A DNA stretch of 55,038 nucleotides from an uncultured Clostridia bacterium (GTDB lineage Bacteria; Bacillota; Clostridia; TANB77; CAG-508). The position numbers were made by a program, and so were the translations under genes. This document shows, in pieces, positions 64-46,123 of this stretch (within the stretch, counting starts at the first letter, position 1; each line of letters begins with the position of its first letter). The notes under the pieces are model-generated. The model was not told the origin of the DNA. It saw only the letters and a list, made by a program, of their open reading frames with translations, and did not search any database. Location: positions 1 to 55,038 of the forward strand of contig CALYBF010000001.1 of assembly GCA_944393755.1 (NCBI GenBank). Reading direction: 5' to 3'.

Positions 64-246
64 ATGGCATTTCAAATAAAACCAAATAGAAAAGAAACAG
101 AAAATAAAACAATAAGATTTCCAATACCATTGATAGAAGATATTGAAAAAGCAATAAGGAATAAAGATGTAACTTTTTCAAGATTTGTAATACAGGCTTG
201 TGAATATGCACTAAATAATTTAGAAGATAAGGAAAAAAATACATAA
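64..246 (+). CDS. small ribbon-helix-helix (Arc/CopG-like) DNA-binding protein
   Basis: 60-aa ORF with a GGAGG Shine-Dalgarno upstream. The N-terminal strand-helix pattern (KTIRFPIPLIEDIEKAI...FSRFVIQACEYAL) is typical of RHH repressors. TTTGCAAT is repeated twice upstream (1-10, 27-36). Family call is by recall only. Confidence 0.45.
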   Translation: MAFQIKPNRKETENKTIRFPIPLIEDIEKAIRNKDVTFSRFVIQACEYALNNLEDKEKNT

Positions 247-497
247 AAATCTTGATTTATATTTGTAGTATTATATTAATATAAATTATGCCTCATAATA
301 TTTTTCAATAAAAAAAATAAAGCACATAAAATTTATAAATAAAATTTTACGTGTTCGCTTGATTTTTGGAATAAAATATAGTATATTTATCCCATAGGAA
401 ATAAGAATAGCAGAGTTGGTTGCCACCTAGCTCTTTGATGTATACATACGTGTTTCCACAACTTTAGTTTGTGAGATTGACAACGGAGGTGGTGTTT

Positions 498-614
498 ATG
501 GTAAATACAATTTTATTAACTATCATCAGACTACTTTTCTTAGGATTAGTAGGTGTAACCATTATAAATTTTGCCTTAGTCATCATCATCACGTACTTAC
601 TACATAGGCAATAA
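498..614 (+). CDS. 38-aa hydrophobic peptide, type I toxin-like (copy 1)
   Basis: ATG 498 lies 5 nt after GGAGGTGG. It translates to MVNTILLTIIRLLFLGLVGVTIINFALVIIITYLLHRQ, below the ORF-track size cutoff. It shares the G-V-T-I-I core and short polar tail with the peptides at 8281..8400 and 8807..8929. Confidence 0.55.
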   Translation: MVNTILLTIIRLLFLGLVGVTIINFALVIIITYLLHRQ

Positions 615-4107: not shown

Positions 4108-4782
4108 CTAATTTAAATTTTCTAAGGCAAGTTTTGCCGCTCTCATTTGTGCTTCTTTTTTGCTTTTCCCCTTTCCTTTTGCTAAGAATTTTCCATTTAC
4201 TTCTACTTCTACAATAAAGCTTTTATCGTGATCTGGTCCACTTTCTCCTATTGTCTTATACTCTATCTTTACATCTCCATTTTCTTGTAACTTTTCTTGT
4301 AATACTGTTTTATAATCTTTATCTCCTACGTGTTTTGTTGCTTCTCTAATTTCTTCTTTTAAATTTTCTACAATAAATTTTTCGGCTTCCTCTAACCCAC
4401 CATCTAAATATATTGCAGCTATCATTGCTTCTACACTATCTTCTAAAATTGCTGGTCTATTTTCTCCATTTGCTTTTTGTTCTGACTTTCCTAAATATAA
4501 GAAATCACTAAAATTATGCAATTTTGCAACTTTAGATAAACTTCTTCCACAAACTACTGTTGCTCTAACTTTAGTCATTTCTCCTTCTGTTAAATATTTA
4601 TAATTATTATAAATATATTTGCTTGATAAAAACTCTAATATACTATCACCTAAAAATTCTAGCTTTTCATTGCTTTCTAAATTTCTTTCATTTGCGTATG
4701 ATGTGTGTCTTAAAGCTTTTTTTAATAATTCTTTATCTTTAAAAGTATAACCAATGTTTTTTTCTAACACACTTAAGTCCAT
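4108..4782 (-). CDS. rnc: ribonuclease III
   Basis: Signature EKLEFLGDSILEF and a C-terminal dsRBD (GPDHDKSF...GKGKSKKEAQMRAAKLAL). Confidence 0.95.
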   Translation of the reverse strand: MDLSVLEKNIGYTFKDKELLKKALRHTSYANERNLESNEKLEFLGDSILEFLSSKYIYNNYKYLTEGEMTKVRATVVCGRSLSKVAKLHNFSDFLYLGKSEQKANGENRPAILEDSVEAMIAAIYLDGGLEEAEKFIVENLKEEIREATKHVGDKDYKTVLQEKLQENGDVKIEYKTIGESGPDHDKSFIVEVEVNGKFLAKGKGKSKKEAQMRAAKLALENLN

Positions 4783-6408: not shown

Positions 6409-7248
6409 ATGAACTTTATGGGAAATTCTAAAATTAAAATTAAAAATGTAAAACTTGCTTTTGTTATTTTAATAATTTTTGCTATTGTGTTATTAATACT
6501 TTATTATAATTTTGTTTTTACACCTGCTTTTTCAAAAAACAATTTTGCAAATCAGATGACTGAAATAGCAGAAGAAAATGAAGAGCCTATTTTCTCAGTG
6601 CAAAAAATAGTAATTTATAGCAGTGCAAATGCGGTTGATAATTCTGAAAATCAATCTTTAAGTAATATGTCTATTTCACAATATAGTGATATTTCTATTT
6701 TTATAAATAATGGTGAGACAATTACTGATTTAACTGATGAAAATACTGTTAAAGAATTATATATTGATGACATTTCGATTGATATAAAATCTGAAAATGG
6801 TACAAAATTATTAAATTATAAGAACCCTTTAAATTTTGGTAAATATAAGGACATTGTAGCTCCTGAAAATGGTAGAATTGATTTTAAGATTGTTAATACT
6901 AATGAACAAAGTGAAAATAATAATTATGATGAACCTACTTTTTATACCGATTGCTCAAACCCTATTTCATTAGGTTTTTTGAATAAAGATTTATTAACGA
7001 ATTACTCTGTCTCTTCTGATAGTAATACAATTTCTTTTAACGGAAAAGTTTTACAAGAGGCTGGTGTTAATTTAGAAGACTTAAATTGTACTTTAACTTT
7101 TACAATTCACATTGTAAATAATTTAAATGAGAAATTTTCATACAATATGAATTTAAATGTAGACCTTAATGGAATTTATGATGGATATACATATAAAGGA
7201 AGCAACACTTCTGGTTCTGAATATTATTTCTTTAAAGAATTAAATTAG
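6409..7248 (+). CDS. hypothetical N-terminally anchored protein (paralog of 46164..46934)
   Basis: Single N-terminal TM, then an Asn/Ser-rich beta-type ectodomain. It is collinear with the 256-aa protein at 46164..46934 (FSVQKIVIYSS vs FEVTKITLISS; NLEDLNCTLTFTI vs NEEDLKSKLTFDL). Confidence 0.6.
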   Translation: MNFMGNSKIKIKNVKLAFVILIIFAIVLLILYYNFVFTPAFSKNNFANQMTEIAEENEEPIFSVQKIVIYSSANAVDNSENQSLSNMSISQYSDISIFINNGETITDLTDENTVKELYIDDISIDIKSENGTKLLNYKNPLNFGKYKDIVAPENGRIDFKIVNTNEQSENNNYDEPTFYTDCSNPISLGFLNKDLLTNYSVSSDSNTISFNGKVLQEAGVNLEDLNCTLTFTIHIVNNLNEKFSYNMNLNVDLNGIYDGYTYKGSNTSGSEYYFFKELN

Positions 7249-7293: not shown

Positions 7294-8046
7294 TTATGGA
7301 ATATAGAGTGCAACCCTAAACCCTATATAAGGGTCTTTTCTATAGATTGCACGCGAAGTTCTATCAGCAACTGGTTTTCTTTCTCTTGGTGTAACCTTTG
7401 TTCCACCTCTTACCACTGCCAACAATTGTTTAGAGTTTACTCTTTCCTGTGTCCACTCTGCCGTACTTCCAGCAATATCAAAGATATTATTCTCGCTTAA
7501 TATCCTACTATTTGGTAGCGTAATATCTTCAATAGACACAGCTCCTGTCGCAAGAAGCCACTGGAGCATTGTATCATATTCTGCTCCATAAACTAGGTGG
7601 CTTCTTATAGCAGAACCTTCTTCAAAGTGTTCCGCTATTTCCGTTGCACAGTTGAAATCAACATATGTCCAAGGCTTTCTTCCTTCTAGTGATTGTGGTT
7701 TAGCAAAAATGCTTTTTGAAATCTGGTATGTGGAGATATAAAAACCCCCATATTCTCTTACACTATGGAATTGATTCCATATTTCTTGTTTTATAGGCTC
7801 TTCTCCCAACTTTTCATCTTTACCAAACCACTTTCTTCTTCCAAGTCGTTGATCAAACTTTATTCCATCAAATGTTCCGTTATCCTTCAGGCAACTTACA
7901 GGTACAAATGTAAAAAGACTTCCATCTGAAATTCTTTCAATTACATACCCTTCGTTCCACTCTCCATATGCATGCCTATATCCCTTAGGAATTACAGGTT
8001 CTACATATTTCTCTGAATAATAACTTCCTACTACATTCCGACTCAT
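7294..8046 (-). CDS. FGE-sulfatase (SUMF1/DUF323) domain protein
   Basis: C-terminal GFRVAL and internal AEWTQ / RGG motifs typical of formylglycine-generating-enzyme-like folds. Strong AAAGGAGAAG RBS. G+C is about 40% in hand-counted lines versus about 20-28% for neighbours. It contains the only in-frame CGG in an uninterrupted ORF (8040..8038). Confidence 0.65.
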   Translation of the reverse strand: MSRNVVGSYYSEKYVEPVIPKGYRHAYGEWNEGYVIERISDGSLFTFVPVSCLKDNGTFDGIKFDQRLGRRKWFGKDEKLGEEPIKQEIWNQFHSVREYGGFYISTYQISKSIFAKPQSLEGRKPWTYVDFNCATEIAEHFEEGSAIRSHLVYGAEYDTMLQWLLATGAVSIEDITLPNSRILSENNIFDIAGSTAEWTQERVNSKQLLAVVRGGTKVTPRERKPVADRTSRAIYRKDPYIGFRVALYIP

Positions 8047-8183
8047 AATCTTCTCCTTTGATCTTTACGTCGGATAATACAAATATAGCAACCGCTATAA
8101 TATTTATTTTACCATATTTTATGTGAATTTTCAAATTTTAAAAATTTATTGACTTTTTCTATAAATCTGTGTATAATAAGTAT

Positions 8184-8274
8184 AGGAAATGGAGAAACCA
8201 CAAACGTGGTTTGCCTCGTTTATAATATGTAAAACACATCTAAACGGTGCAAATGTTACAGATGTGTTTTTTTA
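8184..8274 (+). ncRNA. candidate antitoxin sRNA (copy 2)
   Basis: TTGACT (8149..8154), 17 nt, TATAAT (8172..8177) with an upstream TG. RNA is ~AGGAAATGGAGAAACCACAAACGTGGTTTGCCTCG. Terminator AAAACACATCT/AGATGTGTTTT plus a T-run ends at ~8274, abutting the toxin stop codon at 8281. Confidence 0.5.
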
Positions 8275-8280
8275 TTGGTT

Positions 8281-8400
8281 TTATTGTTTGCTAATAATTA
8301 CAACTAATGCTATAACTAAGGCAAACGCAATGATAGTTACTGATACAAGACCAGCAAAAAATAATTTTACTATTAATAATAATGCTTCTATTTCTACCAT
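8281..8400 (-). CDS. 39-aa hydrophobic peptide, type I toxin-like (copy 2)
   Basis: ATG at 8400 after AAGGAGGTGAGGCGT. It translates to MVEIEALLLIVKLFFAGLVSVTIIAFALVIALVVIISKQ. The leader has GCCTCC, which can sequester the SD. The longer 8281..8490 track ORF is an in-frame upstream extension without an RBS. Confidence 0.55.
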   Translation of the reverse strand: MVEIEALLLIVKLFFAGLVSVTIIAFALVIALVVIISKQ

Positions 8401-8528
8401 ACGCCTCACCTCCTTGTTGGAGGCAAACCACATCTGCTTATTCTCATTTCCTATGTTTATAAGTATATAATATTTTTTTAGAAAAAACAAGCAAATATGT
8501 AAAATTTTATTTATTGATATTATTTAAT

Positions 8529-8574
8529 AAAAAATCTTGTAACTTAGTATTTTAAATAGTTACAAGATTTTTTT
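8529..8574. terminator. bidirectional hairpin terminator (duplicated copy)
   Basis: AAAAAATCTTGTAAC-ttagtattttaaata-GTTACAAGATTTTTTT, identical to 9059..9104. Confidence 0.6.
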
Positions 8575-8717
8575 AATGGAGGCGACAGTCGTATAGACTA
8601 ATTCTCCTAACTAGCTTATATACTGACTTTTAAGCACTAATATATTTCATTTTAACACATTTGATTTTATTTTGAAAATTATTTGACTTTTTCTATAAAT
8701 CTGTGTATAATAATTAT

Positions 8718-8801
8718 AGGAAATGGAGAAACCACAAACGTGGTTCGCCAGTTTAGTATGTAAAAACACACCTGACTGGGCAAAGTTACAGATGTGTTTT
8801 T
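8718..8801 (+). ncRNA. candidate antitoxin sRNA (copy 3)
   Basis: TTGACT (8683..8688), 17 nt, TATAAT (8706..8711). The first ~55 nt are identical to copy 2. The terminator stem carries one C/A mismatch (ACACACCTG vs CAGATGTGT). Confidence 0.45.
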
Positions 8802-8806
8802 ATTGG

Positions 8807-8929
8807 TTATTTGCTCTTACAAAGTAATATTACAAGTGCTATTATTGAAGTAAGAGCTATGATAGTTACTCCTATTAAAGAATAATATAATATGTATATT
8901 GTTGCAATTAATGTTTGTATTTCTACCAT
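8807..8929 (-). CDS. 40-aa hydrophobic peptide, type I toxin-like (copy 3)
   Basis: ATG at 8929 with the same leader and SD as copy 2. It translates to MVEIQTLIATIYILYYSLIGVTIIALTSIIALVILLCKSK. It is absent from the ORF track, whose 8817..9020 ORF is in another frame. Confidence 0.5.
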   Translation of the reverse strand: MVEIQTLIATIYILYYSLIGVTIIALTSIIALVILLCKSK

Positions 8930-9058
8930 ATGCCTCACCTCCTTGTTGGAGGCAAACCACATCTGCTTTATTCTCATTTCCTATGTTTATAAGTATATAA
9001 TATTTTTTTAGAAAAAACAAGCGAATATGTAAAATTTTATTTATTGATATTATTTAAT

Positions 9059-9104
9059 AAAAAATCTTGTAACTTAGTATTTTAAATAGTTACAAGATTT
9101 TTTT
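9059..9104. terminator. bidirectional hairpin terminator downstream of tRNA-Cys
   Basis: Same 46-nt hairpin as 8529..8574, with T/A tracts on both sides. Confidence 0.65.
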
Positions 9105-9106
9105 GA

Positions 9107-9180
9107 TGGAGGCGAGTGTGGGAGTCGGACCCACCATCAGAGTTTTGCAGACTCGTGCCTTACCGCTTGGCTAACTCGCC
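9107..9180 (-). tRNA. tRNA-Cys (GCA)
   Basis: Minus sense is GGCGAGTTAGCCAAGCGGTAAGGCACGAGTCTGCAAAACTCTGATGGTGGGTCCGACTCCCACACTCGCCTCCA. Anticodon loop is CTGCAAA and the CCA is encoded. Confidence 0.9.
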
Positions 9181-9182
9181 AT

Positions 9183-9256
9183 TGGAGCAGGTAGTGGGAA
9201 TCGAACCCGCAACTAAACCTTGGCAAGGTTTTATTTTACCATTAAACTATACCTGC
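9183..9256 (-). tRNA. tRNA-Gly (GCC)
   Basis: Minus sense is GCAGGTATAGTTTAATGGTAAAATAAAACCTTGCCAAGGTTTAGTTGCGGGTTCGATTCCCACTACCTGCTCCA. It has a normal 7-nt anticodon loop TTGCCAA, discriminator U and an encoded CCA. Confidence 0.9.
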
Positions 9257-45983: not shown

Positions 45984-46123
45984 TGGTAGACACTCTTAAA
46001 TCTCTCTATGGAAAGTATGCCACATAAAGATTACTATTTATTGCTGCTTCCTTCCGGACCTGACAAGGTTCATAGGTCTTTATTGGATACTCTCCATACA
46101 AAGATTCAAGGTATATACCATAT
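45984..46123 (-). ncRNA. ffs: signal recognition particle RNA (ffs/scRNA)
   Basis: Minus sense contains the invariant GTCAGGTCCGGAAGGAAGCAGC domain IV. The 5' ATGGTATATACC... pairs with the 3' ...GTGTCTACCAT plus a U-run. Promoter TTGATA-17-TATAAT lies upstream. The position upstream of dnaX matches Bacillus. Ends are approximate. Confidence 0.85.

Follow-up and report, generated by a model that had tools for sequence, protein, structure and literature searches.

The stretch analyzed here, referred to below as the window, comprises 55,038 nucleotides of an uncultured Clostridia bacterium (GTDB lineage Bacteria; Bacillota; Clostridia; TANB77; CAG-508; assembly GCA_944393755.1, contig CALYBF010000001.1, positions 1 to 55,038). 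Two direct-repeat units of about 450 bp each are located at 8135–8585 and 8669–9115, with a spacing of about 530 bp, and each of them combines a predicted small-RNA gene on the forward strand with a convergent gene for a short hydrophobic peptide on the reverse strand. In a preliminary description, the pair had been proposed to represent unannotated type I toxin-antitoxin-like modules with conserved regulatory RNA parts and diverged peptides. The promoter, the small RNA, and the convergent promoter, leader, and hydrophobic open reading frame (ORF) listed there were all recovered in both units. The coordinates of the unit elements, as well as those of a third module near the beginning of the window, were checked base by base against the sequence.

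Organization of the tandem units

The small-RNA promoters (TTGACT-17-TATAAT) were located at 8149–8177 and 8683–8711 on the forward strand, and both agree with the consensus at 11 of 12 positions. The predicted small RNA 1 (8184–8274, forward strand, about 91 nt) is composed of a 5' hairpin (8195–8212), a linker, a terminator hairpin (8234–8267), and a U7 run; its fold z-score was -3.16, and its covariance-model match reached 97 bits. For the predicted small RNA 2 (8718–8802, forward strand, about 85 nt), the respective values were -2.69 and 84.5 bits. These lengths and the hairpin with a following U-run agree with the terminator-ended RNA of about 90 nt that had been described for each unit. 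The small-RNA promoter and the RNA 5' end share 94% identity over 81 nt (8135–8215 vs. 8669–8749). The likeness of the two small RNAs had been thought to extend over their first 55 nt or so; only the first 32 nt or so, together with the terminator 3' arm, turned out to be common to both.

The toxin genes are encoded on the reverse strand. The toxin-1 ORF (8281–8400) specifies a peptide of 39 amino acids (MVEIEALLLIVKLFFAGLVSVTIIAFALVIALVVIISKQ) with a grand average of hydropathy (GRAVY) of 2.2 and homologues with E-values down to 1.8e-18, all unannotated, while the toxin-2 ORF (8807–8929) specifies 40 amino acids (MVEIQTLIATIYILYYSLIGVTIIALTSIIALVILLCKSK; GRAVY 1.7), with 98% identity to the protein clusters P0001 and P0002. 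The toxin promoters, TTGTTT-17-TATACT at 8462–8490 and 8992–9020, were read from the sequence, and that of toxin 1 occurs in the same register in relatives. The toxin-1 leader (8401–8454) has its 5' end near 8454 (AUAGGAAAUGAGAA) and contains GCAGAUGUG at 8429–8437; the toxin-2 leader (8930–8984) has its 5' end near 8984. In both units, the Shine-Dalgarno (SD) sequence GGAGG (8409–8413 and 8938–8942) stands 8 nt before the ATG, and an anti-SD sequence GCCTCC is present at 8419–8424 and 8948–8953. In unit 1, it is flanked by TGTGGTTT (8425–8432), which is complementary to AAACCACA of the small RNA. The suggestion that GCCTCC can pair with GGAGG was supported by folding: in the predicted leader hairpin, AUGUG.GUUUGCCUCC pairs with GGAGGUGAG.GCGUAU, and the SD and the AU of the start codon are buried, with energies of -15.7 kcal/mol for toxin 1 (z -2.9) and -19.1 kcal/mol for toxin 2 (z -4.5). 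Leader variation across the family is concentrated in the loop of this hairpin. In local folds, the first 17 nt or so of the toxin mRNA are unpaired, and their only partner would be the far 3' untranslated region (UTR), if the mRNA reads through. The RNAs of the two units folded better than dinucleotide shuffles, with z-scores from -2.7 to -4.5.

The near-identity noted for the toxin promoter and leader amounts to 99% over the 148–185 nt upstream on the toxin side (8438–8585 vs. 8968–9115). The ORF cores, already described as heavily diverged, differ strongly, and the peptides are only 41% identical. Unit 1 contains a duplicated tRNA-operon terminator hairpin (8529–8573) and the last 10 nt of tRNA-Cys, TCGCCTCCAT (8576–8585), both on the reverse strand. 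The array abuts the tRNA-Cys gene, where the corresponding terminator hairpin (9059–9103) and tRNA-Cys itself (9107–9180; last 10 nt TCGCCTCCAT, 9106–9115) serve as the array anchor on the same strand; tRNA-Gly (9183–9256, reverse strand) belongs to the same operon. As each unit holds a copy of the tRNA terminator and the end of tRNA-Cys, the duplicated block began inside the tRNA gene, and in unit 1 both pieces were carried along.

The third module, absent from the preliminary description, was found by a lenient motif search and the small-RNA covariance model, and it was assigned to subtype B. Its toxin side (359–614, forward strand) consists of a promoter (359–387), a leader (394–497), and an ORF (498–614) for 38 amino acids (MVNTILLTIIRLLFLGLVGVTIINFALVIIITYLLHRQ), with 55% identity to toxin 1 (E = 2e-10). 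The leader is longer than those of the tandem units (anti-SD-like GCCACC at 422–427, an insert of about 55 nt, SD at 485–489, GGAGGTGGTG). Small RNA 3 was predicted on the reverse strand from 695 to 612 behind a TTGACT-17-TATAAT promoter (729 to 701), with a fold z-score of -2.3 and a covariance-model match of 52.4 bits (E = 9e-9; the E-values of this model are rough). At about 286–300, before the third module, a degenerate vestige of the tRNA-Cys end (TTATGCCTCATAA) and the motif AATAAAATTTTAC..GTTCGCTTG were observed, and the dispersed copies are suggested to derive from the tRNA-Cys array. The window peptides (39, 40, and 38 amino acids; GRAVY 1.7–2.2) are small (<60 amino acids) and hydrophobic and have their own ribosome-binding sites, and an antisense small-RNA gene predicted from the sequence is convergent with the toxin gene; both traits are general to type I systems.

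A module family in uncultured gut Clostridia

A profile built from both peptides of the tandem units retrieved 123 protein clusters with E-values down to 1.8e-18, all unannotated and without a Pfam domain, many of which are mis-started within the leader as MWFASNKEVRRM. The 27-nt leader pattern was matched by at least 100 stretches from at least about 90 assemblies of metagenome-assembled genomes (MAGs; species-representative genomes); for the leader and small-RNA motifs of 27–29 nt, zero chance matches are expected according to shuffles. Nearly all carriers are labelled as uncultured Clostridia or Clostridium sp. and originate from human, mouse, rabbit, and chicken gut, one being Clostridium sp. 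CAG:567. The assembly of locus L099 is labelled as a Bacteroidaceae bacterium, yet the locus is a typical low-GC clostridial module, and the label is probably a binning or labelling error. The conservation of the leader in subtype A is partly set by the search pattern, and the peptide-based matches show the same leader.

Module counts are based on the 97 complete modules among the matches listed. An intact ORF of 38–46 amino acids, mostly 40 or 39, is present in 91 of them, and a small-RNA gene convergent with the ORF in 94, including all 91 with an intact ORF. Three modules (L013, L017, and L025) have a disrupted ORF and have kept the small RNA; the remaining three are remnants with neither. 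A TTGAC[AT]-17-TATAAT promoter and the small-RNA 5' motif were likewise retained by 94 of the 97 modules. Across the family, pairing in the terminator helix amounts to 91.8%, and two of its pairs have changed on both sides (AU/GC in 14 sequences; AU/CG/GC in 7). Codon-position entropy sums of 24.2, 11.2, and 26.1 identify the second position as the least variable, and the ratio of nonsynonymous to synonymous polymorphism (pN/pS) was 0.47 in frame compared with 0.77 and 1.02 in the shifted frames, a pattern indicative of a coding sequence under purifying selection. With this coding signature, the occurrence in at least about 90 MAGs, and a small RNA beside every intact ORF (91 of 91), the proposal of unannotated type I-like modules with conserved RNA parts and diverged peptides was upheld at the level of sequence comparison.

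The family peptides consist of one hydrophobic helix whose third residue is acidic and which is followed by a short polar terminus (SKQ, SKSK, or SKSE). Searches of the Pfam and NCBIfam profiles revealed no family up to an E-value of 10 apart from noise (e.g., DUF3149, E = 0.53), and PHROG gave no match, in agreement with the earlier remark that the peptides could not be placed in a named family. The peptide motif YILYYSLIG matched no paper in a full-text literature search. At a permissive threshold, Rfam models matched only tRNAs and the signal recognition particle (SRP) RNA in the window, and the best hit within the modules was RAGATH-12 with 17.7 bits against a threshold of 75.

Directly downstream of tRNA-Gly/tRNA-Cys, modules were found in at least nine MAGs, one of them with a remnant (L071), and the tandem copy number there ranges from one to three (three for L096 and L014, two for L110). 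In ten or more MAGs, modules occur on two separate contigs. Cluster P0059, from human gut metagenomes, lies downstream of spo0A with leader, ORF, hairpin, small-RNA 5' motif, and promoter all kept. Plasmid and phage blastn searches with the whole region returned only short AT-rich chance matches, and a leader-pattern scan of IMG/VR gave no exact match; the module is therefore not phage- or plasmid-borne as far as these collections are concerned. The two peptide types of the tandem units (the IATIYILYYSLIG type and the LLLI[IV]KL[FL]FAGLVS type) each have near-identical relatives in other MAGs, and the N- and C-terminal peptide halves and the terminator types occur as mosaics in different combinations. 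On these grounds, the cores in the window represent two old alleles standing side by side, and their divergence between identical flanks is best read as homogenization of the flanks around old alleles, not as rapid divergence after duplication.

The collected modules fall into five subtypes, A, B, C, C', and D. Subtype B includes L014, L052, L094, L111, and L112; subtype C was represented by the second module of L013, C' by L071 and L072, and D by L079. Applied to the loci already collected, the covariance model added seven more diverged loci, among which are two orphan small-RNA genes and a module in decay. The orphan small-RNA genes (L057, 756–850; L056, 724–808) belong to other subtypes and lie without a toxin ORF beside canonical modules, and the decayed module (L021, 2329–2411) has a truncated ORF. 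A metagenome scan for subtype-B leaders gave at least one match, and a protein search with the subtype-B peptide gave one. The peptides of subtypes C and C' (33–37 amino acids, ending in NKE or DKE; MEFVLFLIYTLGISLTVNVALLTVIFIMWTNKE and MSLILFLVIALMTSITINVALLTILYIKYVNMIIDKE) are hydrophobic and have no evident similarity to those of the other subtypes, and they ride on the same leader and small-RNA chassis. The toxin cargo thus appears exchangeable on one RNA chassis. The change from GCCUCC to GCCACC together with that from GGAGGUGAGG to GGAGGUGGUG in subtypes B–D is possibly a compensatory pair. The leaders associated with clusters P0098 and P0069 are canonical, with changes only in the loop or the SD spacer.

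A conserved (G)TTCGCT was observed just upstream of, and overlapping, the toxin -35 element (TTCGCTTGTTTTTT or TTCGCTAGACAAA) at 356–364, 8485–8495, and 9015–9025 of the window and at the unrelated loci L013, L014, L052, L057, L094, L111, and L112; conceivable roles are those of an operator or of an extension of the promoter. In six modules (L011, L017, L051, L068, L044, and L091), a different conserved sequence (…TAACGCTTACCTG…GGCAGCGTTATAAGCAGATG or …AGGGTCTAGCCGT[GA]ATAAGC…) stands in place of the toxin promoter and the first 20 nt or so of the leader, the other parts being intact except for the ORF of L017.

In the window, the modules are surrounded by housekeeping genes, namely those for an OGG glycosylase, YitT, a radical-SAM enzyme, and RNase III as well as topA. 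No Pfam match was obtained for three ORFs bordering the modules: 64–246 (forward strand, 60 amino acids, just upstream of the third module), 6409–7248 (forward strand), and 7294–8046 (reverse strand). The SRP (4.5S) RNA (46003–46099) and tRNA-Arg(CCT) (47451–47527), both on the reverse strand, are ordinary housekeeping RNAs.

Predicted pairing of the leader, small RNA, and toxin 3' end

The small-RNA 5' end and the leader form an inverted repeat at the DNA level (8192–8217 vs. 8420–8445 and 8176–8191 vs. 8445–8460), so the two RNAs are alike in sequence and not complementary. Both of them start with AUAGGAAAUG(G)AGAA and contain GUGGUUUGCC(UC), and the leader's GCAGAUGUG recurs in ACAGAUGUG, the 3' arm of the small-RNA terminator. 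The small-RNA 1 segment GUGGUUUGCCUC (8206–8217, forward strand) is a sense copy of the toxin-1 leader at 8420–8431 on the reverse strand; read on the toxin strand, the same positions give GAGGCAAACCAC, designated element E2, a sequence complementary to the leader, with -25.8 kcal/mol for the leader-E2 duplex. The small RNA can accordingly be described, from base pairing, as a putative sense copy of the leader and perfect antisense of the toxin 3' UTR.

Pairing was scored in 15 modules of all five subtypes, and swaps were made among six representatives, with subtype B split into B1 and B2. The leader paired better with its cognate E2 (antisense of small-RNA nt 21–46) in 15 of 15 modules (-13 to -26 kcal/mol, 6–15 bp) and in 15 of 15 swaps, and with its cognate E1 (antisense of the terminator 3' arm) in 13 of 15 modules and 13 of 15 swaps. 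The leader segments and their E2 partners in the 3' UTR are GUGGUUUGCCUC and GAGGCAAACCAC in subtype A, UGUGUUGCC and GGCAACACA in subtype B (L112), GUUGCCACUAC and GUAGUGGUAAC in subtype C' (L072), and GUGCUACCA and UGGUAGCAC in subtype D (L079). For E1, AUGUGUUG is matched with CAACACAU in subtype C' and AUGUGG(G)UGC with GCACCACAU in subtype D. Since the pairing with both elements tracks the cognate leader, the conserved leader partner appears to be the toxin's own 3' UTR.

The toxin strand is also the better folded one. On this strand, pairing reaches 96.6% in the 5' hairpin (90.5% in the small-RNA sense) and 80.3% in the inner terminator pairs (42.6% in the small-RNA sense). The outer pairs of the 5' hairpin include 29–34 A.C mismatches in the small-RNA sense, equivalent to G.U on the toxin strand, vs. 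2 the other way. The toxin-sense 3' UTRs had fold z-scores of -4.4 and -4.3, compared with -3.2 and -2.7 for the small RNAs, and in a toxin mRNA running to the small-RNA start, the first 34 nt are predicted to pair with the last 35 nt in a 31-bp helix. The hairpin between the two genes, which had been thought to end both transcripts, is indeed common to both strands. A U-run of at least 4 nt follows it in the small-RNA sense in all 74 distinct modules scored, while in the toxin sense 37 of the 74 have a run of at most 3 nt, the runs of the window units being U4 and U5. The hairpin would accordingly serve as a terminator for the small RNA everywhere and for the toxin mRNA only in part of the family.

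From these observations, each unit is considered to be a chromosomal type I toxin-antitoxin module of a so far undescribed family with repression through a 3' overlap, to which we assign a probability of about 0.6; the type I reading as such is well supported in silico. A moderate sigma-A-type promoter would drive a toxin mRNA whose leader hairpin of about 55 nt hides the SD and the start codon and which encodes a predicted single-pass membrane peptide of 38–40 amino acids. A near-consensus promoter on the opposite strand would produce a small RNA of 85–91 nt with its Rho-independent terminator inside the toxin 3' UTR, to which it would be perfectly antisense. The overlap would include at least the hairpin of about 35–40 nt and, because the toxin strand is often without a U-tract after the hairpin, probably spans most of the small-RNA length. 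The 3' duplex would be the repressing contact, with RNase III cleavage and mRNA decay as in the 3'-overlap systems of Bacillus, the leader hairpin meanwhile holding translation off. Transcription, toxicity, the involvement of RNase III, and the role of the 5'-3' interaction are all inferred from sequence. An RNase III gene (rnc) is present in the window (4108–4782, reverse strand) at 3.4 kb from the array, probably by coincidence.

The leader is complementary to E1 and E2 of its own 3' UTR, and a small RNA bound there would break the leader-3' UTR contact. As that contact engages the anti-SD arm, it may most simply be read as opening the ribosome site, an effect that the small RNA would prevent by masking E1 and E2; alternatively, the complementarity may serve a hok-like inert storage fold. 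A tentative extension, for which the odds seem clearly below even, is that of a decoy antitoxin: toxin translation or stability would need E1 and E2 to pull the anti-SD arm off the ribosome site, and the small RNA would titrate the 3' UTR, letting the leader reclose over the SD and AUG, on a chassis that carries unrelated toxic peptides (A, B, and D vs. C and C'). If true, repression would occur without the antisense RNA ever contacting the leader or the start site.

Some observations weigh against the proposed 3'-overlap account. Locus L114 has a 1-nt register mismatch between the leader and E2, and the comparison of subtypes rests on about ten diverged modules. Given the U4 and U5 on the toxin strand of the window units, the mRNA may stop there and never include E2. 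The subtype-B leader had no confident fold (z +1.0), and the hairpins were not called by a simple terminator scan, whose 3–8-nt limit their loops may exceed. In addition, gene conversion between the inverted repeats, and not RNA pairing, could be what maintains the likeness of leader and small RNA.

A par/Fst-like dual contact, in which the small RNA first kisses the shared hairpin and its 5' arm GGAGAAACCACA then pairs with the leader UGUGGUUUGCCUCC by the ribosome-binding site and blocks translation, was judged unlikely. It is close to the preliminary description, where a 5' contact between AAACCACA and UGUGGUUU had been put forward; this contact can be extended by GGAG with CUCC. The complementarity itself is present: the 8 + 4 nt were found in both units and in all subtype-A modules at about -14 to -25 kcal/mol, the AAACCAC of the small RNA and the GUGGUUU of the leader are near-invariant in contrast to the drifting 3' arm of the small RNA itself, the two have changed in parallel in L112 (AACACA with UGUGUU), and the layout is convergent with a common hairpin. 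As the key interaction, however, the contact was not favoured thermodynamically, and it did not track cognate pairs in the diverged subtypes. Cofolding of leader and small RNA, as proposed in that description, gave minimum-energy structures that keep both local hairpins and never form the contact helix. Shuffled small-RNA 5' ends performed as well in 10 to 184 of 500 cases, so that the real ends were only weakly better than shuffles. The cognate leader was the better partner of the 5' arm for 9 of the 15 modules (4 of the 10 not belonging to subtype A) and in 10 of 15 swaps, many of the latter marginal. In subtypes B, C' (L072, one of the two C' modules), and D, the arm and its own leader paired at no more than -5 to -10 kcal/mol, and foreign leaders were often better. 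The GGAG:CUCC extension is only 56% paired in the family, and the pairing would occupy the anti-SD, tending to open the SD and not to close it. Finally, the DNA repeat is inverted, unlike the direct repeats DRa/DRb of par over the start site. The 8-nt complementarity exists because the 5' hairpin of the small RNA is palindromic around the segment shared with the leader.

A role of the small RNA as an anti-SD in trans (GCCUC on GGAGG) was rejected as a trait of the family: most subtype-A and subtype-B small RNAs lack a CUCC or CACC core, GCC in them preceding AGU, GAA, or AAG, and the part shared with the leader lies just 5' of the core.

It is improbable that the likeness of leader and small RNA and their matched changes are without RNA function, arising through gene conversion or repeated inverted duplication within a 300-bp repeat, with regulation by an ordinary 3' overlap only. 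The flanks of the units are 99% identical even in the tRNA fragment and the tRNA-terminator copy, which have no obvious function in the module and point to recent duplication or homogenization, and the modules are mosaic in peptide halves and terminator types. The copies are not identical, however, and their differences are mostly G.U on the toxin strand and A.C on the small-RNA strand (29–34 cells vs. 2), a bias that conversion would not yield. Moreover, the repeat arms are short (12–40 nt) and interrupted, and E1 and E2 each track the leader separately.

That the peptide is antisense-regulated but a harmless small protein of the membrane, perhaps modulating some membrane complex, and the locus no toxin-antitoxin system, is a poor candidate. 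In favour of it, the peptide has no homology to any validated toxin and a very short charged C-terminal tail, the loci are situated among housekeeping genes and not in mobile elements, and no phage or plasmid copies were found. Against it stand the multiple dispersed copies and arrays of variable number, the constant association of the toxin ORF with a small RNA in the presence of orphan small RNAs, the double lock on translation by a leader burying the SD and AUG, and the unrelated hydrophobic peptide of C and C' on the same RNA chassis, features that are all typical of type I toxins. A mobile element resembling a miniature inverted-repeat transposable element bounded by the inverted repeat was dismissed, as there are functional promoters beyond the repeat and purifying selection acts on the ORF, so that the repeat does not mark an element end; no search for target-site duplications was made.

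The modules would add a widespread, multi-copy chromosomal system of uncultured low-GC gut Clostridia that current annotation misses entirely, there being no Pfam, NCBIfam, or Rfam model and the gene callers often mis-starting the ORF; annotation of such loci can draw on the leader pattern and the covariance model. The comparative set of about 100 modules in five subtypes, with natural swaps of peptide, leader, and terminator, points to a leader-3' UTR interaction masked by the antitoxin, a logic that to our knowledge is so far unreported among type I systems. Copy-number variation and mosaic recombination of toxin-antitoxin modules are cleanly illustrated by the tandem arrays located downstream of tRNA-Gly/Cys.

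Comparison with known type I systems

The par locus of Enterococcus faecalis pAD1 (Fst RNA I/RNA II), with which the units had been compared at first, resembles them in its convergent promoters, common hairpin, SD-hiding leader stem-loop, short second complementarity near the 5' ends, and small single-pass membrane peptide in Firmicutes. The analogy holds for the promoters and the stem-loop and fails for the peptide and the repeats. The system is defined by an Fst peptide with PXXXG in the hydrophobic domain and a charged C-terminal tail (PMC7472228), whereas the three peptides of the window contain no proline and hence no PXXXG, the 49 distinct 40-amino-acid peptides of the family have no conserved proline, the family peptide tail has only 1–2 charged residues, and no Fst/Ldr model was matched. 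The only direct repeat is GGAG(GC)AAACCACA, 22–36 nt upstream of the ATG, and it lies over the anti-SD and not over the SD/AUG. The dominant repeat is inverted and makes both RNAs alike, with no DRa/DRb over the start site. The small RNA is 85–91 nt long compared with about 40 nt in par, the terminator is family-wide for the small RNA only, and the 5' contact does not track cognate pairs.

The CD2517.1-RCd8 and CD0956.2-RCd10 modules of C. difficile share with the window units a host of the class Clostridia, convergent overlapping toxin and antisense genes, and several copies, and the C. difficile toxins are likewise small, hydrophobic, and previously unannotated. They differ in having 34–59 amino acids, lysine-rich tails, Sigma-B promoters, and locations in prophages or by CRISPR arrays, compared with 38–40 amino acids, 1–2 terminal charges, sigma-A-type promoters, and housekeeping sites (tRNA-Gly/Cys and spo0A) here. 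Blastn against C. difficile phage records gave only AT-rich matches of 50–76 nt; no peptide-to-peptide alignment with the C. difficile toxins was made. In a 2019 review of Clostridia, validated type I systems are listed for C. difficile only, with unrelated toxins in prophages or adjacent to CRISPR arrays.

The txpA/RatA and bsrG/SR4 systems of Bacillus subtilis are alike in their convergent genes and in an antitoxin RNA fully complementary to the toxin 3' end, and duplex-triggered decay would be expected here as well. SR4 is described as acting also on translation through a structural change in the toxin mRNA (PMC3834814; review PMC6563280). Unlike in these systems, the modules of the family are not located in prophage-like elements, and the peptides have no homology to their toxins, nor to other type I toxin families of Bacillus and Staphylococcus, in the Pfam, NCBIfam, and PHROG scans. 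We know of no leader complementary to the overlap region in txpA/RatA or bsrG/SR4.

A toxin mRNA with a 5' end complementary to its own 3' end, kept through sequence change, is found in hok/Sok of plasmid R1 and aapA1/IsoA1 of Helicobacter pylori. In both, the 5' region is where the antisense RNA binds, and pairing over the long distance holds the mRNA in an off state. In the modules described here, by contrast, the antisense RNA would cover the 3' partner of the pairing, and as the pairing involves the anti-SD arm of the leader, it would be expected to open the ribosome site and not to close it; no peptide homology was found. Judged by analogy, the layout appears closer to the 3' overlaps of the RatA/SR4 type, the 5'-3' complementarity recalls hok and aapA1, and the modules are best regarded, from their sequences, as a new family within the type I kind.

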